Shown here: positions 13,607 to 55,286 of the stretch, piece after piece
Layout of the letters: the number at the start of each line of letters is the position of its first letter
Numbering within the stretch: the first letter of the stretch is position 1
NCBI GenBank assembly: GCA_036676985.1
Contig: JAKFBU010000041.1
Location: 1 to 64,000, forward strand
Origin: Candidatus Sericytochromatia bacterium
Lineage (GTDB): Bacteria; Cyanobacteriota; Sericytochromatia; S15B-MN24; UBA4093
Direction: 5' to 3'
Length of the DNA: 64,000 nt
The notes under the pieces: generated by a model
What the model was told of the DNA's origin: nothing
The model's input: the letters and a program-made list of their open reading frames with translations, nothing else
Databases searched by the model: none
Made by a program: the position numbers and the translations under genes

Positions 13607-14578
13607 CTATCCCTTCTGCTCGAGGATCTCCTGCGAGACGTCCACCTTCACCGGACGGTTCATCGCATGGTGCGCGATCATCCGCTCCGCGTTCCGGTAG
13701 CAGATCCACTCGGCCTCCTCCGGCGTGACGGCGTCCATGACATTCTTAAGCGCGACGTCCTGAGATAGCAAGGGGAAGTCCGAACCCAACAGCACCCGGT
13801 GCATGCCGATCCGCTCGATGGCCTCGCGAATGATCTCGGGCGGTTGCCAGGAGGTCTCCACGTGGACATGGGCGTACCGCTCGGCCATGCGCAGCACCTT
13901 CTCGTGCTGGTCCCATCCGATGTGGCCGAGCACGATCGGGATCTGGTCGAACGTCCGGATGAAGGGCTCCAGCTCGTCCACGTCGTCGTGATGGGCGTGC
14001 ATGGGGAAGGGGAAGGTGCCCGCGTGGATGAAGATGGGCAGCGCGTGCTCCTGCGCGAACGCCCCCAGCTCGAAGAGCTCGGTCGAGGCCGGGTGCGGGC
14101 CCGCCACCGGCGGGTGGATCTTGAGCCCCACCACCTGGCCGGTCTCCACGTAGAACTTGAGGCGGTCCAGGAAGTTGGGCTCGAACGGGTCCACCGCGCA
14201 GTAGACGGCGATGCGATCGCGGTGCGGCGCGATCGCCTTGAGCACCTCCATGGTCCCGATGAAGGGCTCGATGACGCACACGACGGCCTTCTCGATCCCG
14301 TTCTGGTCCATGCTCTCGAGGAACTTGTCGACCCGGTACTTGTTGAGCAGGCGCATCAGCTCGTGGAAGCCGAAGAACGTGAACTCGTGATACACCGGGT
14401 GGAACTTGGGGTTCCGGCCATGCCGGGCGAAGAGGTTCACGCCCTTGTACAGCCATGGCTCCATCAGATCCGCGAGCTTGTGCAGGACGGGGTACTGCGG
14501 GATGTCGTGCATCTCGATTTCCCCGTCGCCCTTGAGGTGGGCATGGTAATCGATGATCGGACCCTGGTAGACGGACAT
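13607..14578 (-). CDS. Amidohydrolase_2 family metallohydrolase
   Basis: IDYHAH, GLKIHP, IHAG, LGHIG, LLGSDFP. Confidence 0.88.
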   Translation of the reverse strand: MSVYQGPIIDYHAHLKGDGEIEMHDIPQYPVLHKLADLMEPWLYKGVNLFARHGRNPKFHPVYHEFTFFGFHELMRLLNKYRVDKFLESMDQNGIEKAVVCVIEPFIGTMEVLKAIAPHRDRIAVYCAVDPFEPNFLDRLKFYVETGQVVGLKIHPPVAGPHPASTELFELGAFAQEHALPIFIHAGTFPFPMHAHHDDVDELEPFIRTFDQIPIVLGHIGWDQHEKVLRMAERYAHVHVETSWQPPEIIREAIERIGMHRVLLGSDFPLLSQDVALKNVMDAVTPEEAEWICYRNAERMIAHHAMNRPVKVDVSQEILEQKG

Positions 14579-14706
14579 GCGCGAGGCTCCTCTAGATATC
14601 GGCTACCTAGATCCTACCCGTTCCAGCGAGGGGTATAAAGGAACAATCGTCCAATGTGCTCACCGCCCCGGTCGGCGAGCCGATGCCGGCAGCCCCGGAA
14701 AGACGA

Positions 14707-14732
14707 AGGGCCGCGCCTGTCGGCGCGGCCCT
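14707..14732 (-). terminator. Hairpin after the ABC-F gene
   Basis: agggccgcgcc-tgtc-ggcgcggccct. Confidence 0.55.
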
Positions 14733-14739
14733 CTGCGTT

Positions 14740-16380
14740 CTATCCCACCCGCAGGGTCTGCTGGTACTGTGAGCCGGGGAACCGGTTCCCGTTCTTCTCC
14801 AGGAAGTCGGGCAGGCCGCCCAGGTACTCGGTGGTGTGGCCCTGATCGATGAGGATGACCTTGGTGGCCACGTCGCGCAGGAAGTGGCGATCGTGCGAGA
14901 CGAACACGAGCGTCCCCTCGAACTGCTGCAGGGCCTCGAGCAGCACCTCGCGGGTGCGGATGTCCAGGTGGTTGGTGGGCTCGTCCAGGATGAGGAAGTT
15001 GCAGGGGTTCGCGATGATCCGCGCGAGCACCAGGCGGGTCTTCTCACCGCCCGAGAGCACCGAGATCTGCTTTTCCACGTCGTCCCCGCTGAAGAGCAGG
15101 GAGCCCAGGATGTTCTGGATGGAGGCGCGGCTCGTGGTGGGCGCCACCTCCTGCACCGCCTCGTAGACCGTCATGTCGGGCTTGAGGATCTCCGTCTGGT
15201 GCTGGGCGAAGTAGCCCACCGAGAGGCTCGCCCCGAGCTTGCACTCGCCCTGGTCCGGGGAGAGCTGCTGGGCGAGAATCTTGAGCAGGGTCGACTTGCC
15301 GGCGCCGTTGACGCCGAGGAACGCCACCCGGTCCAGGCGCTTGATCTGGAGGTCGATGTTCTCGAGCACCGTCTTCTCGCCGTAGGCCTTGCCGACGCCC
15401 GAGATGGTCGCCACGATGTCGCCGCTGCGCGGGCAGGCGGGCCACTGGAAGTCCACCGCGCGCAGCTCCTTGGGCACCTCGATGCGGTCCATCTTCTCGA
15501 TCATCTTGACCCGGCTCTGCACCTGGGCCGCGTGCGAGGCGCGCGCCTTGAAGCGCGCGATGAACTCCTCTTCCTTCTCGAGGGCCTTCTCCTGGCGCTT
15601 GGCGGCGGCCTCCAGGTTCGCGAGGCGGGTGGCCGACTCGTTGACGTAGAAGTCGTAGTTGCCCGAGTAGACCGTGATCCCGCCGTGCTCGACGGCCACG
15701 ATCTTGCTGACCAGGCGGTTCATGAAGTCGCGATCGTGCGAGGTCATGAAGATGGCGCCGGGGTAGCGATCGAGGAACTCCTCGAGCCAGATGATCGTCT
15801 CGACGTCCAGGTGGTTGGTCGGCTCGTCCATCAGCAACGCGTCGGGCTTGCGCAGCAGGACCCGCGCGAGCTCGATGCGCATGCGCCAGCCGCCGGAGAA
15901 CTCGCCGACCTTGCGCTCCTGGTCCGCGGCCGAAAAGCCGAGGCCGCTCAGGATCTCCTGGGCGCGCTGCTCGAGATCGTAGCCGCCCAGCGTCTCGAAG
16001 ACGCTCTGCGCCTCGCCGAGCTCCTCGAGGACGGCGTCCATGTCCGCGAGCTCGGGGTCGGACAGCCGGTTCGAGAGCTCCTCGATGCGCTGGCCCAGGG
16101 TGTGGACCTCCCACGCGCCGGCCATGGCGCACTCGAGCACCGTCAGGTGGACCTCGGCCGCGGGGTTCTGCGAGAAGTAGCCCACGGTGAAGCGCTCGGG
16201 GATGGTGATCGACCCTTCGTCCGCGGATTCCTCGCCCACGATCATGCGGAAGAGCGTGCTCTTGCCCGCGCCGTTGTGGCCGACCAGGCCGACGCGCTCG
16301 CCGGGATTGATCTGGAAGTTGGCGTCCTTGAACAAGAAGCGCTTGCTCTGGAACTTGGAAACCTGTTGGAAGGCGATCAT
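14740..16380 (-). CDS. ABC-F family ATPase
   Basis: Two ABC domains (GHNGAGKS, FSGGW, DEPTNHLD; GVNGAGKS, LSGGEK), no TM segments. Confidence 0.93.
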   Translation of the reverse strand: MIAFQQVSKFQSKRFLFKDANFQINPGERVGLVGHNGAGKSTLFRMIVGEESADEGSITIPERFTVGYFSQNPAAEVHLTVLECAMAGAWEVHTLGQRIEELSNRLSDPELADMDAVLEELGEAQSVFETLGGYDLEQRAQEILSGLGFSAADQERKVGEFSGGWRMRIELARVLLRKPDALLMDEPTNHLDVETIIWLEEFLDRYPGAIFMTSHDRDFMNRLVSKIVAVEHGGITVYSGNYDFYVNESATRLANLEAAAKRQEKALEKEEEFIARFKARASHAAQVQSRVKMIEKMDRIEVPKELRAVDFQWPACPRSGDIVATISGVGKAYGEKTVLENIDLQIKRLDRVAFLGVNGAGKSTLLKILAQQLSPDQGECKLGASLSVGYFAQHQTEILKPDMTVYEAVQEVAPTTSRASIQNILGSLLFSGDDVEKQISVLSGGEKTRLVLARIIANPCNFLILDEPTNHLDIRTREVLLEALQQFEGTLVFVSHDRHFLRDVATKVILIDQGHTTEYLGGLPDFLEKNGNRFPGSQYQQTLRVG

Positions 16381-48292: not shown

Positions 48293-49594
48293 CTAGAATT
48301 TCCGCTGGCTCGAGATGGCGTAGTAGAAGCCCTTGGAAGAGGCGAACAGGCCGTTGTAGGCCCCCATGGCCAGATCGATCCGCGACTCCGCCCCGTCGAA
48401 GCCGAGTCCCAGGCTGTACAGGGTGGCGCTCTCGCCGCCGACGCTCAATCCGGCCCGCAAGGGCAGCCAATCCAGTACTCGGTACTCTCCGCCCAGATGG
48501 ATCTCCGGGATGTTCGAGACGCCGTAGCCCTTGCCCATGCCGACTTCCACGTCGGCCGCGAGCATGAGCGGCACGGCGCCTGCCGGCAGCCACCGGCCTC
48601 CGACGCCGACCTTCAAGGGCAACGGATCCCAGATCCCCTGGCCGTTGTTCGGCCCCACGGACTCCTCGGTCTGGACGTTCGGCGTCGCGTTGAACTGGCC
48701 GTCCGACGACAGCCCCGGCGCGTAGCGATCGAGCTTGTAGGTGTGGCGCTTCTCCGTGACGTTGCCCCAGTAGACGCCGCCGATATTGCCCACGTTCAGA
48801 GCGAGCCTCAGATCGCGCCGCACGTCCACCGCCACCGAGGTGTCGAGCGCCATGCCGCTGCCGAAGGTCCCGTACTGGTAGGTGGCGCTCGCCTCGCCCG
48901 AGAAGGAGCCGTCCGCATTGGTCTGCAGCAGATCCCCCCGAGCCTCGGTGATGCGCCCGAAGGCAAGGCCCTGGACGTAGCGTCCGGTCACACCCACCGC
49001 CACGTTCGGCAGGCGCATGAAGGTGAGAGGGATGCCGACGGAGAGCCCCCCGTCGGCAAAGCTGTCGATGCGCGCACCCTCCAGGCTGTCGATGCGCACG
49101 GCGGTCGCCGCCGCGTTGCCCCTGAGCACCAGTCCCAGCAGGTCGCGAGGCAAGTTCAGGCCCGCCGTGTCGAGCGTGCTCCGGGCGAAGACACCGAGCC
49201 CCGAGGCCGGGATGCTCGCCCCCCAGGAGACGCCCCCGTCGAGCTGGAAGCCCCATCCCGTCGCGGGGATGGCGCCCGCGAGGTTCTCGGCGTCGGCCTC
49301 CGAGAGCTCCTTACCCTGCAAGAGCTCGTCGATGGCCCTAAAGCCCAGCAGGTTGTTGCCGAGCCCGATACTGATGCCTGGCAGCGAGGAGATCACGGCG
49401 GAATGCGTGGAGGGCAGGCCCAACAGGGCCGGGGTGGTCCAGGCGTTGGAAGCGGCTCCCTCGACCGCGAGGCCCGCACGCCCCATTCCGAGCGCACGCG
49501 CATCGTACGGCACGGCCTCCGCCCGGTCAGCAATGGCAAGAGAGGCCCCCAAGAGGAGGGCGATCGCGCTGGCTGTCCGGATCGAGTGGCTCAT
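48293..49594 (-). CDS. Outer-membrane beta-barrel (FadL/PorV/TraF-DUF5723-like)
   Basis: Signal peptide; ARALGMG...NAWTTPA N-terminal motif; GGEY...LRAG; terminal Phe. Confidence 0.7.
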   Translation of the reverse strand: MSHSIRTASAIALLLGASLAIADRAEAVPYDARALGMGRAGLAVEGAASNAWTTPALLGLPSTHSAVISSLPGISIGLGNNLLGFRAIDELLQGKELSEADAENLAGAIPATGWGFQLDGGVSWGASIPASGLGVFARSTLDTAGLNLPRDLLGLVLRGNAAATAVRIDSLEGARIDSFADGGLSVGIPLTFMRLPNVAVGVTGRYVQGLAFGRITEARGDLLQTNADGSFSGEASATYQYGTFGSGMALDTSVAVDVRRDLRLALNVGNIGGVYWGNVTEKRHTYKLDRYAPGLSSDGQFNATPNVQTEESVGPNNGQGIWDPLPLKVGVGGRWLPAGAVPLMLAADVEVGMGKGYGVSNIPEIHLGGEYRVLDWLPLRAGLSVGGESATLYSLGLGFDGAESRIDLAMGAYNGLFASSKGFYYAISSQRKF

Positions 49595-49855
49595 GAACTC
49601 CCCAACGTGGCGTGAACGAGGGCAAACCCATCATGCAACGGGCGAAGCGCGCGCTTCTGAGACGCCCATCACCGATCGCACCGCACGCCTACCCTATGCT
49701 TCTACCCGGCGACAAAAAATATTGGCAACATTTGGTGATCATATTTCTGAAAAGGGTACACAGGCATAGAGGCAGGGCCCGGCTTTCAGGCCAACCAACC
49801 GCTGAGAGCCGCTTAGCCCCCAGGTTTGCACAGCATGATTTTCACAGGTGACCGC

Positions 49856-51787
49856 ATGACGCGACGATTGGTGCTCCAGATCGCCCTGTCCCTGAGCCTG
49901 GTGGCGACGGCCGGCGCTCCGGTGGCCGCCGCTCTCGCTCCCCTGCCGCCCCTCCAGACGGCGCCGACCCGGCTGATGCTCGGCGAGTCGAACCCGTCTT
50001 TGGTGGAGCTGAGCTACGAGCGCCTGCTCGAGGAGAGCCTGCAGCAGAGCCTGGCCGCATACCTCGGCCCCGACAACTTCGTGGTGCAGGTTCGAGTGGC
50101 GATCGCCCAGGACTCTCAGTCCTCGCAGCCCGCCCCGGTGCAGCAGTTCCAGCCGCAGCCCATCCAGGCGCCCGTCGTCCAGCCTCAGCAGCCCGCCTTC
50201 GAGGAGCTCGCAGCGGAGCCGGACTTCGACTCCATTCCGGCCCTGCCGGGGCTCGGCATTCCCGCCGAGGAGCGGACCCGCCGTCCGGCTCGCCAGGCGC
50301 AGCCCGTGCAGCCGCCCCAGCCGCAGACGCCGACCTTCCAGCCCCAGCCTCAGGCACCCGTCGCCCAGCAAGCCGCCATGCCCCGGATCGAGCGGATCCG
50401 GGTCTCCCTGGTTCTGCCGAGCTCGCTCCAGAGCACCGACGAGGACTACGTCAAGAACCTGGTCTTCCAGCGCGCCGACCTCAACTTCGCCCGGGGCGAC
50501 ACCCTGGACATCACGCGCCGGGACTTCCCGCGCTCGGCGGGCATGCCTGCCGCGGCAGGCGGCCAGAGGCCGGCCGGCACGATGCCGGGCTGGCTGTGGG
50601 CGCTTGCCGGCGCTCTCGGCGCGAGCGTCCTCATCGGGGGCGCGCTCATGCTGCGCCGCCGCACCGAGCCCCAGCAGGCCTTGGCCCCGATGGCCCCCAT
50701 GCTGCCTCCTCAGTCCGAGAACATGCGGGCTGCCGAGGCGCTCCTCGCCAGCGTCAGCGCGAGCAAGACCGCCGAGCCGCCGCCCATGCGCCAGGACCTC
50801 CTCGTGATGCTCCTCGAGCGTCCGGAGATGGGTGAGCGCTACGTGCGGCGCCTCTTGAGCGAAGAAGGCGGACTCGAGAAGGCCACGACCTTCGCCCAGG
50901 CCATGGGCGTGGGGGTTGCCAAGCGCCTCTTCAACGGCCTGCACCCCAACGAGTGGAAGGCCATCGAGCTCGCCGCCCTCGACCAGAAGGACGTCAAGCG
51001 CGAGGATCAGCAGTCGGCCCTCGAAGAAGCCCTCTTCGCCATGCTGCGCGAGCAGGCCGAGCACCAGGGCAGAGACAAGGACGCTCCGTTCGCCTTCCTC
51101 TCGACCCTCGACGACTCCCAGATCCTCTTCATGCTCGAGGACGAGGGACCGCGCGTGCAGGCCCTGGTCCTCTCGCAGCTGTCTCCCGACCGGGCGGTTG
51201 GCCTCATGCGCCTCAAGACGCCCGCCGAGCAGGGTGCCATCGCGGCCGCCATGGGCGAGCTGCACCTGTTGCCCATGAGCTCGTTCATCGACCTGGCGCA
51301 CCACATGGCCGAGAAGGCCACCAAGGCTCCGAGCTTCGAGACGCCCGTCACCAACGGCCTGGGCCTGCTCGTCAACCTGCTCGACCACTCCGATCGGGCG
51401 ACCGAGCAGGGCATCCTCAGCGGCCTGTCGACCCAGAACCCGAGGCTCCTCGCCCAGGTGCGCGAGGCCTACCTCACCTTCGACGACCTGGCCAAGGTGC
51501 CGCGCGACGTCCTCAAGGACGCCCTGCGCGAGGTGGACAAGGAAACCCTCGCCGAGGCCCTGCGCGACGCGCCAGAGCCGGTGCGCGACGCCATCGTCGC
51601 CTCGCTCACCGACCGTGCCCGCCGCATCGTCGACGACGTCCTGTCGCAGCCGCCCATGGCCCGGCAGGAGGAGGCGAAGCTCGAGGCCATCCGCAAGGAC
51701 CTCGTGGGCCGCGTCCGCCAGCTGATGCAGGCCGGTCGGTTCGCCGTCAAGGAGCTCCAGATTCCCAAGCAGGAGGAGGTCAGGTGA
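49856..51787 (+). CDS. FliF ring-like / TM / FliG(M+C) fusion protein
   Basis: Signal peptide; LAAYLGPDNFVVQV...RGDTLDI (FliF C-terminal ring-like); one TM; PFAFL...EGPRVQALVLSQL (FliG_M); YLTFDDL...LREVD...ALR...LTDRARRIVDD (FliG_C). Confidence 0.8.
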   Translation: MTRRLVLQIALSLSLVATAGAPVAAALAPLPPLQTAPTRLMLGESNPSLVELSYERLLEESLQQSLAAYLGPDNFVVQVRVAIAQDSQSSQPAPVQQFQPQPIQAPVVQPQQPAFEELAAEPDFDSIPALPGLGIPAEERTRRPARQAQPVQPPQPQTPTFQPQPQAPVAQQAAMPRIERIRVSLVLPSSLQSTDEDYVKNLVFQRADLNFARGDTLDITRRDFPRSAGMPAAAGGQRPAGTMPGWLWALAGALGASVLIGGALMLRRRTEPQQALAPMAPMLPPQSENMRAAEALLASVSASKTAEPPPMRQDLLVMLLERPEMGERYVRRLLSEEGGLEKATTFAQAMGVGVAKRLFNGLHPNEWKAIELAALDQKDVKREDQQSALEEALFAMLREQAEHQGRDKDAPFAFLSTLDDSQILFMLEDEGPRVQALVLSQLSPDRAVGLMRLKTPAEQGAIAAAMGELHLLPMSSFIDLAHHMAEKATKAPSFETPVTNGLGLLVNLLDHSDRATEQGILSGLSTQNPRLLAQVREAYLTFDDLAKVPRDVLKDALREVDKETLAEALRDAPEPVRDAIVASLTDRARRIVDDVLSQPPMARQEEAKLEAIRKDLVGRVRQLMQAGRFAVKELQIPKQEEVR

Positions 51788-52455
51788 GACGCTCCCGCAT
51801 CCTTCTAGCCGGTTCGCTGTGCCTCATGGCGCTCGGCATGGCCCTCGCCATGCCGCCGGCTGCCACCAACGCCCAGACCGCCGCCGCCTCGCCCAAGCCC
51901 AAGGCCGATGCTCCGCCCCAGGGCGGCATCCGCCTGCGCCGCGAGGGGCCCAGCATCGACCTGGACTCGATCATCGACGCCACGCAGCCGGACTTCTTCA
52001 TCAACGTGGAGATCGTGGCCACGCCCACGCCCCTGCCCACCCCGACGCCGACGCCCGAGCCCTTCCCCACCCCGGAGCCCATGCCGACGCCCGAGCCCAC
52101 GCCTGACGTGGTCCTCGAGCCCTCGCCGGAGCCCAGCCCCGCGGTCGTGCTCGCCCCCACGCCCTCGCCCTTGCCCCAGAAGCCGGCGGTGGACCTGATG
52201 TACCAGGCGCAGCGGCTGGCGACGCTCGGTCAGTACCAGCGATCGCTCGGCCTCATCGAGCAGGCCATCGGCCAGGACCCGGAGCGCGCGAGCCTCCATG
52301 CCGTCCGCGGCTCGGTGCTCTTCAAGCTCAAGGATTACGCCGAGGCCGAGGCGGCCTGGACCAAGGCCCTCGAGCTCGATCCCAGCGCCTACGACGTGAA
52401 GACCAGCCTCGACTGGCTCAAGAAGCGTCGGGCGTCGTCCCAGTTCGCTCAGTAG
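51784..52455 (+). CDS. Exported Pro/Thr-rich TPR protein
   Basis: GTGA overlap with the upstream stop; signal peptide; PTPEP linker; C-terminal TPRs (AWTKALELDP). Confidence 0.8.
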   Translation: MRRSRILLAGSLCLMALGMALAMPPAATNAQTAAASPKPKADAPPQGGIRLRREGPSIDLDSIIDATQPDFFINVEIVATPTPLPTPTPTPEPFPTPEPMPTPEPTPDVVLEPSPEPSPAVVLAPTPSPLPQKPAVDLMYQAQRLATLGQYQRSLGLIEQAIGQDPERASLHAVRGSVLFKLKDYAEAEAAWTKALELDPSAYDVKTSLDWLKKRRASSQFAQ

Positions 52456-52465
52456 AGGAAGGACC

Positions 52466-53608
52466 ATGCGCAAGATCCTCTCCGTCGCCCTCATCGGCCT
52501 CTTGGGCATCGCCCCGGCGGCGCTCGCCAAGGAGCCGGTCCCGCCCGTCCCGGCGCTGACCGAGATCCTCTCCGATCCGCAGTCGATCCTCTACGTCATC
52601 CCGTCTCTGCCCGACACCGTGACCAAGATCGACCCGACGGTCGTACGCGTCTTCCTCTACAACGAGCGCAAGCGCGACGAGACCGAGCCCCTGTCGGCGG
52701 TCGTCGAGAACCGTCTCAACGAGGAGCTGCTGCGCCTTAGGCGCTTCAAGGTCATCGAGGCCCGCGAGGCCAAGACCACCCGCGTCGAGTCGAGCAGCAC
52801 CAGCTTCCAGCTGAGCAACACCATCGAGAGCCTCTCGCGCCTGCGCTCCATCGGGCAGTCGGTCGGGGCCGACGCCGTCATGATGTACGCGCCGCAGATC
52901 CAGGACCGCATGGTGCTCGTGAGCGCCAAGCTGGTGAAGGTCTCGGACGGCGAGATCCTCTGGACCGACCGTTTTGCCTACAACTTCGACCTGCAGTCCG
53001 CCATGAAGGAGGCCAAGGTCCGGGCCGACGAGCTCGCGAAGCTGGAAGCCGACAAGAAGCGCGTCGCCGAGGAGCGCCGCACCCGCGACAACGGCTTCTA
53101 CGTGTACACCGGCATGACCGGCTACTCCATGCGCCGCGCGAAGACCTCGGGCGCCAGCGACCAGATCTCGCCCGCGGGCATCACGGCGCTCGGCGCCACG
53201 GTGCTGCGCAACGTCTCGTTTGCCGACAACGTGGCCGTGGGCCTGGATGGCGAGTTCGACCTGGCGGGCTCCATCAACCCGAACCTGCCCCTCTCGTACC
53301 TCTCCATCACGCCCGTCCTCTTCATGCGCCTCGACCCGCTGTTCGTGCGCGGGGAGAACCACGGCGTGGTCAACCTATACCTGGGGGCTGGCGAGACGGT
53401 GCTGTTCCAGCAGCCGAACCCCACCTACGAGACCACGGGCAAGGCCGGCCTGATGTTGCGCTTCACCCCCGAGACCTTCCTCAACCTCGGCATGATCTAC
53501 CAGACCGAGAAGACCGTCACCTTCAGCCCGGTCACCGGGCTCGCCAACACGGTCGAGAAGTACGGCGGCCTCACCTACCAGGTCACCTTCGGCTACGCGT
53601 TCAAGTAA
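52466..53608 (+). CDS. Exported protein: CsgG/FlgO/LpoB-like domain + coiled coil + probable beta-barrel
   Basis: RFKVIE...IGQSVGADAV...AKLVKVSDGEILW pattern; amphipathic strands ending YQVTFGYAFK. Confidence 0.65.
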   Translation: MRKILSVALIGLLGIAPAALAKEPVPPVPALTEILSDPQSILYVIPSLPDTVTKIDPTVVRVFLYNERKRDETEPLSAVVENRLNEELLRLRRFKVIEAREAKTTRVESSSTSFQLSNTIESLSRLRSIGQSVGADAVMMYAPQIQDRMVLVSAKLVKVSDGEILWTDRFAYNFDLQSAMKEAKVRADELAKLEADKKRVAEERRTRDNGFYVYTGMTGYSMRRAKTSGASDQISPAGITALGATVLRNVSFADNVAVGLDGEFDLAGSINPNLPLSYLSITPVLFMRLDPLFVRGENHGVVNLYLGAGETVLFQQPNPTYETTGKAGLMLRFTPETFLNLGMIYQTEKTVTFSPVTGLANTVEKYGGLTYQVTFGYAFK

Positions 53609-53619
53609 GGGACTGATCG

Positions 53620-54453
53620 ATGCCCATGATTTCCATCTCGACGCTCGCCGGCATCCTGCTGGGCTTCGGCCTGTGCATCTGGGCCATCACGTCGGCGACC
53701 AAGGACTTCCACATCTTCTGGCACATGGAGTCCTTCGCCATCGTCATCGGCGGCATCTTCGCCACCACCCTGATCGGCTACCGCACGCGCTACGTCATCC
53801 GCACGCTGTCGAGCCTGGGGCGCCTCTTCGTGATGCAGCCCATCCAGCCGGCCACCCTGCGCGACGACATCCAGCAGATGGTGGAGTGGGCGTCGCTCAA
53901 CCAGCGGGGCCTGGGCGCGGTCGAGGAGGACTTCGCCAAGAAGCCCACCAAGGATGACTTCCTGCAGTACTCCATGGACATGCTCATGAACGGCTACAAG
54001 GAGCATGACCTGCGCCTCTTCCTCGGCGACTACATCGAGAGTAGCTTCAACCGCAAGATGGTCCAGGCCCAGATCCTCAACCAGATGGGCGGCCACGGCC
54101 CCGCCTTCGGTATGATCGGCACCCTGATCGGTCTGGTCATCATGCTGGCGGACATGTCGGACCCCTCCAAGATCGGCCCGGCCATGGCCATGTCCCTGCT
54201 CGCGACCCTCTACGGCGTCGTGAGCGCGCGACTGCTCTTCATCCCGGCCGCGAGCAAGATCCAGCAGATCCTCGAGATCGAGAAGTATCGCCGCTACATG
54301 CAGCTCGAGGGCATCGTGATGCTGCAGGAGAAGCGGTCGGCGACCTACGTGATGGACCGCCTCAACTCGCTGATGGATCCGTCCCTGCGCTACAACCGCG
54401 ACGGCTCGGCGCCCAAGAAGGGCACCGGCCCGCTGCTCGCGGCCAAGCGGTAG
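53620..54453 (+). CDS. motA: MotA/PomA-type stator subunit
   Basis: IVIGG, PAFGMIGTLIGLVIML, IGPAMAMSLLATLYG, FIPAASK. Confidence 0.9.
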   Translation: MPMISISTLAGILLGFGLCIWAITSATKDFHIFWHMESFAIVIGGIFATTLIGYRTRYVIRTLSSLGRLFVMQPIQPATLRDDIQQMVEWASLNQRGLGAVEEDFAKKPTKDDFLQYSMDMLMNGYKEHDLRLFLGDYIESSFNRKMVQAQILNQMGGHGPAFGMIGTLIGLVIMLADMSDPSKIGPAMAMSLLATLYGVVSARLLFIPAASKIQQILEIEKYRRYMQLEGIVMLQEKRSATYVMDRLNSLMDPSLRYNRDGSAPKKGTGPLLAAKR

Positions 54454-54462
54454 GGCCGGCGC

Positions 54463-55236
54463 ATGTCGAACCCGATCGGACGCAACCGGAGCCCCTTCGG
54501 GCCCAAGGGCGGCGGCGGCCACGCGCTCAAGGAAGACGAGCAGTGGCTCATCACCTACGCCGACACCATCACCAACCTCATGGCGCTCTTCATCCTCATG
54601 CTGTCGGTCTCGACGGTCAACATGGCGGCCTTCGAGCAGATCCAGTCCAAGCTCAAGAAGCAGTTCTCGGGCAAGGAGGCCCCCAAGCCCATCGAGCAGA
54701 TCCAGAAGCAGATCGAGAAGATCGTCCAGGAGAAGAAGCTCGAGAAGCAGGTGCAGGTGACCTCGGACGGCAAGGGCGTCATCGTCGAGTTCGCGTCGAG
54801 CGCCGTCTTCCAGCTCGGCAAGGCGGATCTCCAGCCCCAGATCAAGGGGGCCTTCGCGGCCATGGCCACGGAGCTCAAGACCAAGGACTACCGTAACTAC
54901 ACCATCGAGATCGAGGGCCACACGGACGACCAGCCCATCCACACGCCGGAGTTCCCCTCCAACTGGGAGCTCTCGAGCCGCCGGGCCACCAACGTCGTCC
55001 GCTACTTCATCGATGAGAACGTCGAGAAGACGCGCCTCAAGGCGGCGGGTTACGCGGACATCTTCCCCAAGGTGCCGAACCGGGACGCCAACGGCCGGGC
55101 GATCGCTGCCAACCAGGCGAAGAACCGCCGCATCGTGGTCCGGCTCGTGCCCGGCCAGCGCAGCGAGGGCATCTCGAAGGAAGCGCTGAAGAAGGAACAG
55201 GCCCAGGACGCAGCCCCCAAGGGCGGCCACCACTAG
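54463..55236 (+). CDS. motB: MotB/PomB-type stator subunit
   Basis: WLITYADTITNLMALFILM (essential Asp); EGHTD, SNWELSSRRA, GYAD, NRRI OmpA-like domain. Confidence 0.92.
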   Translation: MSNPIGRNRSPFGPKGGGGHALKEDEQWLITYADTITNLMALFILMLSVSTVNMAAFEQIQSKLKKQFSGKEAPKPIEQIQKQIEKIVQEKKLEKQVQVTSDGKGVIVEFASSAVFQLGKADLQPQIKGAFAAMATELKTKDYRNYTIEIEGHTDDQPIHTPEFPSNWELSSRRATNVVRYFIDENVEKTRLKAAGYADIFPKVPNRDANGRAIAANQAKNRRIVVRLVPGQRSEGISKEALKKEQAQDAAPKGGHH

Positions 55237-55254
55237 CCCCCAAACCGCATCTCG

Positions 55255-55286
55255 GGTCAGGCCCCGCCGCATGGCGGGGCCTGACC
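55255..55286 (+). terminator. 14-bp-stem hairpin closing the motor operon
   Basis: ggtcaggccccgcc-gcat-ggcggggcctgacc. Confidence 0.65.

Follow-up and report, generated by a model that had tools for sequence, protein, structure and literature searches.

The question raised by this locus is whether a set of flagellar motor parts encoded apart from any other flagellar gene forms a machine of its own or serves the flagellum of the cell. The window, i.e. the whole stretch of DNA that we analyzed, comprises 64,000 nt of contig JAKFBU010000041.1 (here C41) of a Candidatus Sericytochromatia bacterium (GCA_036676985.1), a non-photosynthetic relative of the Cyanobacteria. An initial annotation described five tightly coupled genes, for a FliF/FliG fusion, an exported TPR protein, an outer-membrane barrel protein, MotA and MotB, and proposed that they form a minimal, non-flagellar rotary motor. 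Our results confirmed the genes and their coupling: the cassette spans 49856-55236 on the plus strand, the rotor and TPR genes overlap by 4 bases, with the TPR gene starting at GTG, and the remaining gaps measure 10 (TPR to outer-membrane protein gene), 11 (outer-membrane protein gene to motA) and 9 bases (motA to motB). [quoted passage not shown] The observations that bear directly on it are domain content, the retention of key residues, gene linkage, co-occurrence and a separate stator lineage.

Table 1. Features of the cassette and its surroundings (positions in the window).
Feature	Coordinates	Strand	Length	Basis or remark
Candidate sixth component, outer-membrane barrel of the DUF5723 / TraF_2 / PorV-PorP-SprF kind	48293..49594	-	433 aa	Divergent from rotor gene
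Divergent intergenic region	49595..49855	+		Conserved blocks and rotor-gene ribosome-binding site AGGTGA; four-genome alignment
Rotor protein (FliF-RBM3/TM/FliG fusion)	49856..51787	+	643 aa	Pfam, AF2 model, Foldseek, family alignments
Exported TPR protein	51784..52455	+	223 aa	Pfam TPR_2/TPR_1/TPR_16; signal-like N-terminus
Outer-membrane protein	52466..53608	+	380 aa	Signal peptide, AF2, VIA-align, Foldseek
MotA-type stator A subunit, flagellar (PomA/MotP-like) kind	53620..54453	+	277 aa	Pfam MotA_ExbB
MotB-type stator B subunit: TM with channel Asp, plug, OmpA-like peptidoglycan-binding domain	54463..55236	+	257 aa	Pfam
GC-rich hairpin	55255..55286	+		19 nt past motB stop; fold -40.1 kcal/mol, z -5.68

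Homologues that begin with the same MTRR, together with an AGGTGA conserved 6-7 bases ahead of it, support the ATG at 49856 as the rotor start. Alignment of four genomes revealed an invariant ACAGGTGACC-N2-ATGACGCGACG in the divergent intergenic region, in which a consensus scan found no sigma-70-like site; no promoter was assigned. The hairpin that was annotated as closing the operon has a perfect 14-bp stem and a 4-nt loop, and none of 200 shuffles matched its fold energy. It has no U-tract and is therefore missing from the terminator-scan list; it likely represents the operon end or an RNA-stabilising element. A contig from a different study covers 51713-55237, from the TPR gene to motB, and an alignment over 3520 letters shows 92 mismatches and 6 gaps, indicating that the arrangement is not an assembly artefact.

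The rotor protein combines FliF-type and FliG sequence as claimed. It begins with a hydrophobic helix (signal or TM1), followed by a single periplasmic ring-building motif of the FliF RBM3 type, into which ~90 disordered residues, rich in Pro and Gln and including a conserved LPGL motif, are inserted. Next come a TM helix (245-265) and a linker helix in the cytoplasm, and then the N, M and C domains of FliG, all of them complete. Pfam scores were 65.9 bits for FliG_C, 29 for FliG_M and 25.2 for FliG_N, while YscJ_FliF_C, at 19.8 bits, fell under its cut-off of 23.8, which a homologous marine rotor clears with 35.9 bits. PF01514 (RBM1/2) gave no match in the rotor in the Pfam search. The AF2 model (pLDDT 68) displays an a-b...b-a-b helix/strand pattern, then the TM and FliG, and Foldseek matched it to full-length FliG chains with E values of 7e-9 to 1e-6 and to FliF RBM3/S-ring chains with E values of only about 1e-2, at a probability of 1.00. 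The rotor family comprises 148 representatives at E <= 1e-30; among the best 150 relatives, 138 have at least 450 aa, and 130 of these 138 contain an internal TM-like segment.

Comparison of the torque helix with that of T. maritima FliG showed that both basic residues and one of the two acidic residues are kept; the second acidic position is Val, and Arg replaces an upstream Lys. Of 47 diverse members of the family, 44 have R or K at the first basic position, and the acidic positions vary. The FliM-binding EHPQR motif is degenerate in the rotor, where EHPQ reads EGPR, so that the H and Q are absent. In the same 47 proteins the glutamate of this motif is kept in 44 and the Gln is found in 4, and the six residues seen most often at the His position do not include His.

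The last two genes encode a MotA and a MotB, as annotated, with Pfam scores of 70 bits for MotA_ExbB, 56.9 for MotB_plug and 63.9 for OmpA. The best solved relatives of the MotA are Clostridium MotA (6ysf/8ucs, E 1e-30) and PomA, and its charged loop (R-G-L-G-A-V-E-E) and the two conserved prolines are retained; aligned to Clostridium MotB, the MotB keeps the Asp in 'tyaDtit'. Thus, the torque-helix residues, the MotA R...E loop and prolines, and the Asp, plug and OmpA-like domain of MotB indicate that the rotor-stator interface is retained. All NCBIfam equivalog cut-offs were missed by a wide margin in the cassette proteins (e.g. 147 bits against 341 for PomA with the MotA, and 165 against 283 for MotD with the MotB). 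In a phylogeny, the cassette stators and the reversed-order 'BA' pairs of family f4 and genus g3 formed one clade with support of 100/99, inside which the marine cassette stators fall, apart from canonical stators and those of the type found on contig C1 of this genome.

The exported TPR protein (TPR_2, 38.4 bits) and the outer-membrane barrel protein were likewise borne out. In the former, a linker rich in Pro and Thr connects a conserved motif (IRLRR-G-SIDLDS) with a TPR module of ~90 residues at the C-terminus; in an alignment of 9 orthologues, conservation was limited to the motif and the TPR end, and the linkers ranged from ~100 to ~500 residues. In the outer-membrane protein (AF2 pLDDT 77.9), a periplasmic alpha/beta domain of the LpoB / PelC / TolB-N / FlgO kind (39-174) is joined by a 32-residue helix (174-205) to an 8-stranded barrel (207-380). 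VIA-align matched the barrel to OmpA (Z 16.8, rmsd 2.0, 125 aligned) and the protein to LpoB (Z 10.6, rmsd 3.5, 125 aligned) and PelC (Z 8.8 and 8.1), and Foldseek returned OprG/Ail/OmpW, TolB and LpoB. The Pfam match of the N-domain to FlgO is borderline, at 22.3 bits for a cut-off of 22.6. The candidate sixth component has a signal peptide and a C-terminal F, as read from its sequence, with weak matches to Pfam DUF5723 (E 5.6e-4) and NCBIfam PorV_fam, and its nearest Atlas clusters, scoring 0.98, carry DUF5723/TraF_2.

If these genes were the only fliF, fliG and motAB of the genome, a normal flagellum would be their natural destination. Contig C26, however, carries a separate canonical cluster with FliF, FliG (155 bits), MotAB, FliM/N and FlhA, and a third MotAB pair lies on contig C1. 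The proposal of a dedicated stator-rotor pair is strengthened by this canonical set and by the clade of the cassette stators. Contig C6 holds a second flagellar-type cluster, with rod proteins, FlgA, FlgI, a FliK-like protein, FlhA and a 643-aa FliF that includes FliG_M and lacks FliG_C; FliG_C matches occur genome-wide only on C26 and in the cassette. When the contigs of the genome were profiled, matches to FliG_C, FHIPEP, FliMN_C, YscJ_FliF, Flagellin_N and Flg_bbr_C were located off C41 except for the rotor itself. No other flagellar family was found on C41, in agreement with the annotated lack of fliM/N, export gate, rod, hook and flagellin genes in the window.

The cassette is conserved as a unit: within the window's own family, 9 of 10 genomes keep it, and it recurs in a second phylum. 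All six loci from six other genomes of family f1 have the order rotor-TPR-OMP-MotA-MotB. On marine Oceanospirillales contigs, 31 loci reach 9 kb or more, and 25 of them encode all five homologues, in the order OMP-TPR-rotor-MotA-MotB and flanked by housekeeping genes (fumarase, pterin dehydratase, PhoX); their outer-membrane proteins are full-length homologues (E 1e-15 to 1e-21), and a homologous TPR gene was identified by Pfam on marine contig L104. Across the two phyla the cassette proteins are homologous at 22-45% identity, and all five reading frames of the cassette are intact.

Two parts of the original description need qualification in view of this distribution. The term 'minimal five-gene' is too narrow for Sericytochromatia, as the full-length rotor, the outer-membrane protein and the DUF5723-like barrel occur in the identical 17 of 47 genomes and the stator genes of the sister family are unlinked or flank the core. 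The barrel gene adjoins the cassette in genera g1-g3, is separated from it by 0.6-8.5 kb in g4 and lies on different contigs in family f4, where the genes co-occur despite being unlinked. The 17 genomes represent two clades plus one possible loss, and hence few independent events; the possible loss, in G018, could be explained by one missing contig, because that genome is 91% complete. The label 'non-flagellar' goes beyond this distribution, since canonical FliG is also present in 16 of the 17 holders (the seventeenth genome is 64% complete).

Compared with the flagellar motor core (FliF MS-ring, FliG and MotA5B2 / PomA5B2), the cassette contains the same families and a predicted interface of the same kind: an RBM3-type domain, TM and FliG N/M/C with torque helix, facing a plugged, peptidoglycan-anchored stator with channel Asp and R...E loop. 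It differs in that FliF and FliG are one polypeptide with a degenerate EHPQR and without RBM1/RBM2, that two to three outer-membrane partners replace linked FliM/N, export gate, rod, hook and filament genes, and that its stators form a lineage separate from the canonical stators of the genome. Single chains carrying both proteins have been engineered in Salmonella and Vibrio (e.g. PDB 8z4d, FliFG S-ring) and are reported to still form rings. The 8z4d chain matches our rotor in fold and in sequence (E 9.6e-12); it has full-length FliF with three RBMs, amounts to 945 aa and belongs inside a flagellum, whereas the cassette rotor is natural, has 643 aa and one RBM, and lacks a flagellar context. 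A natural fusion of shortened FliF with FliG sequence occurs in Chlamydiaceae, organisms not thought to be flagellated; in the accessible portion of that account (10.1101/023564), it is ~330 aa long, with RBM2, one further RBM-like segment and a homologue of the FliG middle domain only, and is proposed to be linked to the type III secretion system, no MotAB partner being named there. It is closer to the C6 FliF-FliG_M protein than to the cassette rotor.

TolQR-TolA-TolB-Pal, ExbBD-TonB, GldLM (type IX secretion and gliding), AglRQS-Glt (Myxococcus gliding) and ZorAB resemble the cassette as inner-membrane motors of the MotAB family tied to outer-membrane or surface components. Among the cassette partners is a domain resembling TolB-N/LpoB, and Sericytochromatia add a barrel similar to PorV/PorP/SprF, of a type that is known elsewhere from type IX secretion. 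To our knowledge, none of the TolQR, ExbBD, GldLM, AglRQS and ZorAB systems uses FliG or a FliF ring motif. Their B subunits also differ in lacking the plug plus OmpA-like module, which a published classification ties to flagellar stators (PMC12505986).

Based on these homologies, we infer ring formation, rotation and outer-membrane coupling. Copies of the fusion protein would assemble through their single RBM3-type domain into an inner-membrane ring, with the FliG domains hanging on its cytoplasmic face. MotA5B2-type units, held to the peptidoglycan by the OmpA-like domain of MotB, would conduct ions through the channel that contains the Asp and exert force on the C-terminal torque helix of FliG, so that the ring would turn. 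In the flagellar MS-ring, RBM1/RBM2 of FliF hold the type III export gate. As the fusion lacks these domains as well as the H and Q of EHPQR, its ring would bear no export apparatus, rod or switch complex. The periplasmic RBM3 ring and the insert with its LPGL motif may engage the exported TPR protein and also the LpoB/PelC-like domain, which would be held below the 8-strand barrel on a helix of ~5 nm; the PorV/PorP/SprF-like barrel may be a further partner in Sericytochromatia. The output would be mechanical work on an outer-membrane or surface component, perhaps serving surface movement, export or envelope maintenance. Of the earlier proposal, the dedicated stator-rotor pair is supported, while the transfer of torque across the periplasm to the outer-membrane protein is something that we infer. 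A ring without an axle through the peptidoglycan offers no obvious route for continuous rotation to the outer membrane.

The cassette might instead be a flagellar accessory, i.e., a supplementary ring or scaffold, with further stators, that surrounds or adjoins the canonical motor and tunes torque or anchors the motor to the outer membrane in the manner of the Vibrio H/T-ring proteins (FlgO, FlgP, FlgT, MotX/Y) or the Campylobacter PflA/PflB/FlgP disks. Because 16 of 17 holders also have canonical FliG, this is a live rival, albeit one that we consider rather unlikely. No holder without flagellar genes was found among the 401 Cyanobacteriota genomes sampled, and the cassette sets a TPR protein and a FlgO-like, outer-membrane-associated domain beside stator genes, as those accessories do; TPR proteins scaffold the stators of some flagellar motors. 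The FlgO match lies just under the cut-off, though, and the fold is common to LpoB, PelC and TolB-N. We know of no FliF or FliG paralogue that the Vibrio and Campylobacter accessories have of their own, and these belong to flagellar regulons, whereas the cassette was never in or beside a flagellar cluster, either in this genome or at the marine loci. The named marine holders belong to flagellated genera, Thalassolituus, Oleispira and Bermanella, which again favors an accessory. Bermanella is reported to make flagellar filaments (10.1101/221366). Against this role, many flagellated relatives lack the cassette (22 genomes of f2, f3, f5 and f7 have FliG only), the FliM-binding motif is lost, the stators are a lineage of their own, and Bacteroidota are among the nearest Atlas clusters, which is a lead only. 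The C-ring is templated 1:1 by FliF tails, and it is not evident where a FliG that is anchored in the membrane and brings its own RBM3 would fit into it.

A non-rotary transducer or envelope tether, in which MotAB power TolA/TonB-like conformational work of the fusion protein that pulls or releases the outer-membrane protein, appears improbable. Such a device could act in outer-membrane maintenance, constriction or uptake, as do Tol-Pal or ExbBD-TonB. The TolB-N/LpoB fold, the lack of an encoded axle and the long Pro-rich periplasmic linkers of the rotor insert and TPR protein, which resemble the extended linkers of TolA and TonB, would suit it; the flagellar kind of stator, with plug and OmpA-like domain rather than of the Tol/Exb kind, would not, and neither would a rotor in which both the motif for ring building and the torque helix of FliG, elements linked to the rotation of a ring, are retained. 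That the cassette supplies the torque domain missing from the C6 system, as the confinement of FliG_C to C26 and the cassette might suggest, is very hard to credit, since the phyletic patterns contradict it (the C6-type protein occurs in 46 of 47 class genomes and the cassette in 17) and marine cassettes sit among housekeeping genes. We give equally little credence to a degenerating leftover of a second flagellar system that has been lost or to a Zorya-like anti-phage system. Paralogues of FliG and MotAB that are encoded apart from flagellar genes might be relics, but the intact frames, the homology across two phyla and the residues kept argue otherwise; the MotB matches ZorB models (E 2e-21), but the MotA hits none of the ZorA models, genes resembling ZorC/D are absent, and the other four proteins scanned gave no match to any PADLOC model.

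A full-text literature search found no published description of this system, in line with the initial annotation. If our preferred reading of an autonomous rotor-stator machine is true, the cassette would be an undescribed ion-driven envelope machine made of flagellar motor parts.

The five-gene cassette on contig C41, the contig of genome G000 that holds the window, was found to be a real, conserved functional unit, kept together across at least two phyla, and its parts are members of known families. We regard it, with a probability of roughly 55%, as an autonomous rotor-stator module that is driven by ions and coupled to outer-membrane (OM) proteins. Gene order, spacing and hairpin (see the table) are as described in the initial annotation, i.e., five tightly coupled genes closed by a hairpin. 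Pfam searches matched FliG_C, FliG_M and FliG_N in the rotor, the 643-aa fusion of a predicted FliF-type (RBM3) segment, a transmembrane (TM) helix and FliG, with YscJ_FliF_C below threshold. The other four proteins gave TPR repeats, a borderline FlgO, MotA_ExbB, and MotB_plug with OmpA, respectively. The ATG start of the rotor gene is backed by homologues and by a conserved AGGTGA just 5' of it, and a contig from an independent study covers the region from the TPR gene to motB at ~97% identity. The one run labelled RNA-Seq is made up of contigs and probably derives from DNA. A consensus scan upstream of the cassette showed no sigma-70 site, and inspection by eye for sigma-28 and sigma-54 patterns gave no convincing match; no reference flagellar promoter could be derived from this genome for that comparison, because its flagellin genes are truncated by contig ends. 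Rfam found no RNA families in the window, and hence no riboswitch.

Coordinates of the cassette, its neighbors and the other motor genes discussed in the text
Feature	Contig or locus	Position	Strand	Remarks
Rotor gene	C41 (window)	49856-51787	+	First of five head-to-tail genes
TPR protein gene	C41	51784-52455	+	4-base overlap with rotor gene
OM protein gene	C41	52466-53608	+	Gap of 10 bp after TPR gene
motA	C41	53620-54453	+	Gap of 11 bp after OM protein gene
motB	C41	54463-55236	+	Gap of 9 bp after motA
Hairpin	C41	55255-55286	+	14-bp perfect stem, -40.1 kcal/mol, z -5.68, without U-tract
Barrel protein gene	C41	48293-49594	-	Divergent from and upstream of rotor gene
135-aa protein gene	C41	47801-48208	-	Adjoins barrel gene
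DUF4349 protein gene	C41	46629-47696	+	193 bits
Low-GC island	C41	34000-38000		GC 0.57-0.59 versus ~0.68
1214-aa ORF	C41	34444-38088	+	Fills the low-GC island
Canonical FliF	C26	~39.7 kb
Canonical FliG	C26	41.4 kb		155 bits
Canonical MotAB	C26	50.5-52.0 kb
FliM/N-type genes	C26	53.4 and 54.5 kb
FlhA	C26	70.7 kb
Third MotAB pair, divergent	C1 (locus L068)	135097-136512		27-29% identity to cassette MotAB
Second flagellar-type cluster	C6	~50.7-63.2 kb		Locus L065:2733-15152
Three FliMN_C (SpoA) genes	C30	68737-70678		In tandem
Rod-family match	C30	71529
Reversed motB-motA pair	L039 (G013)	13689-15186
Reversed motB-motA pair	L047 (G015)	323-994

The window genome (4.68 Mb in 79 contigs) carries further motor genes. 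Its canonical flagellar cluster lies on C26, where the canonical FliG adjoins FliF, flagellin-family genes are located on C13, C45 and C50, and C1 contains a third MotAB pair with orthologues in 5/5 other genomes examined. Because of the sets on C26 and C1, the cassette does not represent the only fliF, fliG and motAB genes of the genome; the opposite finding would have undone the proposal of the initial annotation. Its statement that flagellar genes are absent around the cassette also stood, as searches with six flagellar Pfam families gave no match on C41 except the rotor.

Separately, we observed a second flagellar-type cluster on C6, which encodes a FliK-like protein, two FlgF/G-type rod proteins, FlgA, FlgI, a sigma factor, a rod protein, a second FlhA, and a 643-aa FliF fused to the FliG middle domain without FliG_C. 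The fused FliF resembles the chlamydial FliF-FliG_M fusion described in 10.1101/023564. FliF of this type is present in 46/47 of the Sericytochromatia genomes that we used as a class sample, including 5/6 of family f6, a family in which the rotor query found no FliG in 6/6 genomes. Because the C6 protein has no FliG_C, we considered that the cassette might supply its torque domain; this idea was rejected, since the two are distributed differently (46/47 versus 17/47 class genomes). The tandem FliMN_C genes on C30, a contig that also gave a rod-family match, may belong to the switch or sorting platform of the second flagellar-type system. In several other genomes, canonical fliG lies in stop-to-stop open frames of 867-875 aa (genome:contig G011:C28, G016:C28, G018:C38, G023:C15, G024:C6, G025:C22 and G026:C15), and the canonical FliF matches in those comparisons occupy separate open frames of 528-535 aa. 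For the former, a long open frame due to GC-rich sequence is the probable explanation, and not a fusion.

Within Sericytochromatia, the full-length fusion was found in 17/47 genomes, i.e., 9/10 of the window's own family (f1, the window genome counted) and 8/8 of its sister family f4, the latter count including one genome with only a fragment at a contig end. A match of canonical FliG length only was obtained in 22/47 genomes, and no match in 8/47. The OM protein and the divergently encoded barrel protein each occur in exactly the 17 fusion-bearing genomes of the 47. Among 401 sampled Cyanobacteriota genomes, the fusion was confined to the same 17. Protein searches by words, in which the rotor or a rotor alignment served as query, returned only the same 21 Sericytochromatia-type proteins, and a contig search by the rotor alone recovered one close relative; the named homologues are Candidatus Sericytochromatia MAGs, some of them under cyanobacterial genus names. 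The order rotor-TPR-OM protein-MotA-MotB is kept in 6/6 other f1 genomes from which the locus was retrieved, and the f4 core consists of rotor, (long) TPR and OM protein genes, with a related, reversed stator pair located elsewhere. Genome G027 has motB 5' of the rotor gene and motA after the OM protein gene on a probably adjoining contig. The sole f1 genome without the rotor (G018) also lacks the OM protein, the barrel protein and the cassette-type MotA, which could be explained by one missing contig (the genome is 91% complete).

To look outside the phylum, we searched 1.84 billion representatives exhaustively with a profile and obtained 4947 matches at E <= 1e-3, with 148 at E <= 1e-30. A length of 450 aa or more was found for 138 of the best 150, and 130 of these 138 contain an internal TM-like segment. 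A metagenome scan with six of the nearest non-Sericytochromatia representatives as queries, in which synteny was sampled for the marine clade, yielded 64 loci, and the 31 of at least 9 kb were examined. In 25/31 loci, each of the five window proteins had a homologue, arranged as OM protein-TPR-rotor-MotA-MotB; this count overstates independence because several of the 31 are near-duplicates. Among the other loci, 2 lacked nothing but an OM protein match, 3 were cut at the rotor and 1 was of the f4 type. The tblastn E-values for the marine proteins were 1e-15 to 1e-21 (OM protein), 1e-45 to 1e-57 (rotor) and 1e-42 to 1e-62 (MotA/B), and the flanking genes are housekeeping genes (fumarase, pterin dehydratase, PhoX). 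Named members of the marine clade are Oleispira, Thalassolituus (including a complete T. hydrocarboniclasticus genome) and Bermanella. Among 20 wider-family representatives looked up, the named ones are one Deltaproteobacteria MAG and one Elusimicrobia MAG, and the nearest Atlas clusters list Balneolota, Pseudomonadota, Bdellovibrionota, Bacteroidota and Elusimicrobiota, as leads only. The window cassette fits this family, which is characterized by a fusion of ~550-800 aa with an internal TM helix and by accompanying genes for MotA, MotB, a TPR protein and an OM protein. In at least two phyla, therefore, the five genes are kept together as a unit, and the lack of conservation that would have spoken against the proposal of the initial annotation was not seen.

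The AlphaFold model of the rotor (16-sequence alignment, mean pLDDT 68) contains, in order, a hydrophobic N-terminal helix, a helix and strand (residues 49-84), a disordered Pro/Gln-rich stretch (87-173), a strand-helix-strand element (177-222), a TM helix (245-265), a linker helix and an all-helical region (310-627). Foldseek comparison of the helical region with full-length FliG chains gave E-values of 7e-9 to 1e-6, with those at 7e-9 to 5e-8 spanning 314-343 columns, and by Pfam and Foldseek the three-domain N/M/C armadillo-like architecture of FliG is present. The N-terminal part matched FliF RBM3/S-ring chains (probability 1.00, E ~1e-2, TM ~0.5 normalised to target); YscJ_FliF_C (RBM3) scored 19.8 bits in the window rotor, under the cut-off of 23.8, and 35.9 bits in a marine homologue. 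Because of the model elements and the Foldseek matches, the periplasmic part is predicted to be a single ring-building motif of the RBM3 type. The disordered insert lies at the position where FliF bears its collar. It includes an LPGL motif that does not vary among 16 Sericytochromatia sequences (L in 40/47 and P in 36/47 diverse family members). RBM1-RBM2 (PF01514, YscJ_FliF), the region of FliF that houses the export gate, is absent from the rotor and was found genome-wide only on C26 and C6.

The charged torque-helix residues that meet MotA are K264, R281, D288, D289 and R297 in E. coli FliG numbering. Alignment to T. maritima FliG showed that the rotor retains R, D and R and that it has Arg at the Lys position and Val at the second acidic one, where an additional Asp precedes the Val by one residue. 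Across 47 family members, the first basic position is R/K in 44/47, and the acidic positions are variable. The FliM-binding EHPQR motif is not kept, EHPQ of T. maritima FliG being EGPR in the rotor; in the family, E is found in 44/47 and Gln in 4/47, and His falls outside the six commonest residues. A canonical FliG is a soluble protein of ~330-350 aa encoded with fliF/fliH, whereas the rotor has 643 aa with a TM helix, and it scored 63 bits against the fliG equivalog TIGR00207 (cut-off 226.7). Judged from its sequence, the rotor looks able to engage a stator and does not look able to bear a switch complex or an export gate.

Among solved structures, the cassette MotA is closest to Clostridium MotA (with the MotAB-FliG complex 8ucs among the entries) and to Vibrio PomA. 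The charged cytoplasmic R...E loop and both conserved prolines of MotA are retained, as are the channel Asp, plug and OmpA-like domain of MotB. According to PMC12505986, these features identify flagellar-type ('FIT' class) and not Tol/Exb-type units, and the cassette MotAB has them. All NCBIfam equivalog cut-offs were missed by the cassette stator (PomA, 147 versus 341 bits; MotD, 165 versus 283 bits). In maximum-likelihood trees of tblastn-aligned segments (25 MotA and 26 MotB rows, with no canonical stators from other phyla), the cassette stators and reversed-order (motB-motA) pairs form one clade with 100/99 support, apart from the C26-type and C1-type stators. Marine stators from 11/64 loci group on the cassette side (FastTree, midpoint rooted, supports not printed). 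We also observed that the reversed-order pairs are the sister clade of the cassette stators; they were seen at the two loci in the table and, in family f4, at L051, L052, L054 and L055. In f4 they are unlinked from the rotor, and in genus g3 they lie directly 3' of the cassette motAB. A Zorya-like defence system was considered and rejected, since the sole PADLOC match was that of MotB (ZorB models), with none for MotA or for the four further proteins in the scan, and the cassette has neither a long-tailed ZorA nor ZorC/D-type effectors.

The exported TPR protein is signal-like at its N-terminus and contains a short conserved motif; a Pro/Thr-rich linker, which varies widely in length, leads to a C-terminal TPR module of ~90 residues that is also conserved. 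The model of the OM protein (pLDDT 77.9) shows an alpha/beta domain (residues 39-174), a 32-residue helix and an 8-stranded barrel. The alpha/beta domain resembles LpoB (Z 10.6), PelC (Z 8.8 and 8.1) and TolB-N, and the barrel matches the OmpA TM domain (Z 16.8, rmsd 2.0 across 125 residues). The FlgO Pfam match of the OM protein (22.3 bits, just under the cut-off of 22.6) arises because the LpoB/PelC/TolB-N fold class includes FlgO, and the fold fits LpoB, PelC and TolB-N equally well. Linkage of the Vibrio H-ring kind (flgP/flgT, flagellar genes) was not seen, no flagellar genes being linked to the OM protein gene. Co-folding of the periplasmic region of the rotor, the periplasmic part of the OM protein and the TPR protein gave scores of 0.24 and 0.14 against a mark of 0.32, which are silent on binding either way. 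The barrel protein, a candidate sixth component, is of the DUF5723/TraF_2/PorV-PorP-SprF kind.

We made several observations on the sequence 5' of the cassette. The 135-aa protein lacks a signal sequence, is unmatched in Pfam and NCBIfam, and is kept beside the barrel gene in genera g1-g3 at 40-68% identity. The DUF4349 protein, whose N-terminus is lipoprotein-like and whose C-terminal region is hydrophobic, is not kept beside the cassette in other genomes. The single ORF of the low-GC island has no Pfam match above cut-off and a weak P2 GpR match (E 1.6e-4).

That the cassette is a flagellar accessory would agree with the presence of canonical FliG in 16/17 Sericytochromatia holders, no holder without flagellar genes being confirmed, and with the marine holders Oleispira, Thalassolituus and Bermanella, which are flagellated genera. 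Bermanella makes flagellar filaments, as stated in the abstract of 10.1101/221366. However, the cassette is never linked to flagellar genes, many flagellated relatives are without it, its FliM-binding motif is lost, and it has its own stator lineage. Furthermore, we know of no place for a membrane-anchored FliG in a FliF-templated C-ring. On balance, an accessory role appears unlikely. A non-rotary, Tol/Ton-like transducer seems very unlikely to us, the stator features being those of the flagellar and not the Tol/Exb type. The idea that the cassette is a relic of a lost flagellar system was rejected in view of its conservation in f1 and in the marine loci.

The autonomous rotor-stator module that we favor might, more specifically, be a free-standing ion-driven rotary motor, a possibility that we put forward tentatively and with some doubt. 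Such a motor would combine a one-protein FliF(RBM3)-FliG ring with its own MotAB lineage, without a type III export apparatus, rod or switch, and would pass force via Pro-rich periplasmic linkers and the TPR adaptor to OM barrels (including the PorP/SprF-like one), thus moving or handling a surface component. That the cassette preserves a pre-flagellar state, in which rotor and stator cooperated before joining a secretion system, is highly improbable in our judgment.

In agreement with the initial annotation, which did not recognise a described system, full-text searches of articles without their supplements found no published description of the cassette; stators or rotor proteins of this type may be listed in the supplements of PMC12505986 and 10.1101/2024.12.05.626484. 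The latter reports rotor proteins in 11% of non-motile species and hints at an alternative function, with no system described there. Among the nearest published items are also the natural chlamydial fusion (10.1101/023564), engineered FliF-FliG fusions and the MotAB classification of PMC12505986.

The family includes cultured marine bacteria, e.g. Thalassolituus hydrocarboniclasticus, and therefore genetics and cryo-ET are feasible. The window adds that the cassette occurs alongside two further sets of flagellar-type genes, that a sixth, barrel protein co-occurs with it, that its stator genes can be unlinked or order-reversed, and that these belong to a separate clade including the marine cassette stators, in trees without canonical stators of other phyla. 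To our knowledge, FliG-MotAB torque generation is known only inside flagella, and the cassette would take it outside. If the free-standing motor is true, it would add to the known kinds of rotary envelope machine in bacteria and would occur in several phyla. A conserved module that retains no more than FliG, the ring motif and a stator of flagellar type, with OM partners in place of the rest, would mean that the rotor-stator core is separable and can have a job of its own. It would also make a long-standing question testable, namely whether the flagellar motor originated when a rotor-stator that already existed was joined to a secretion system.
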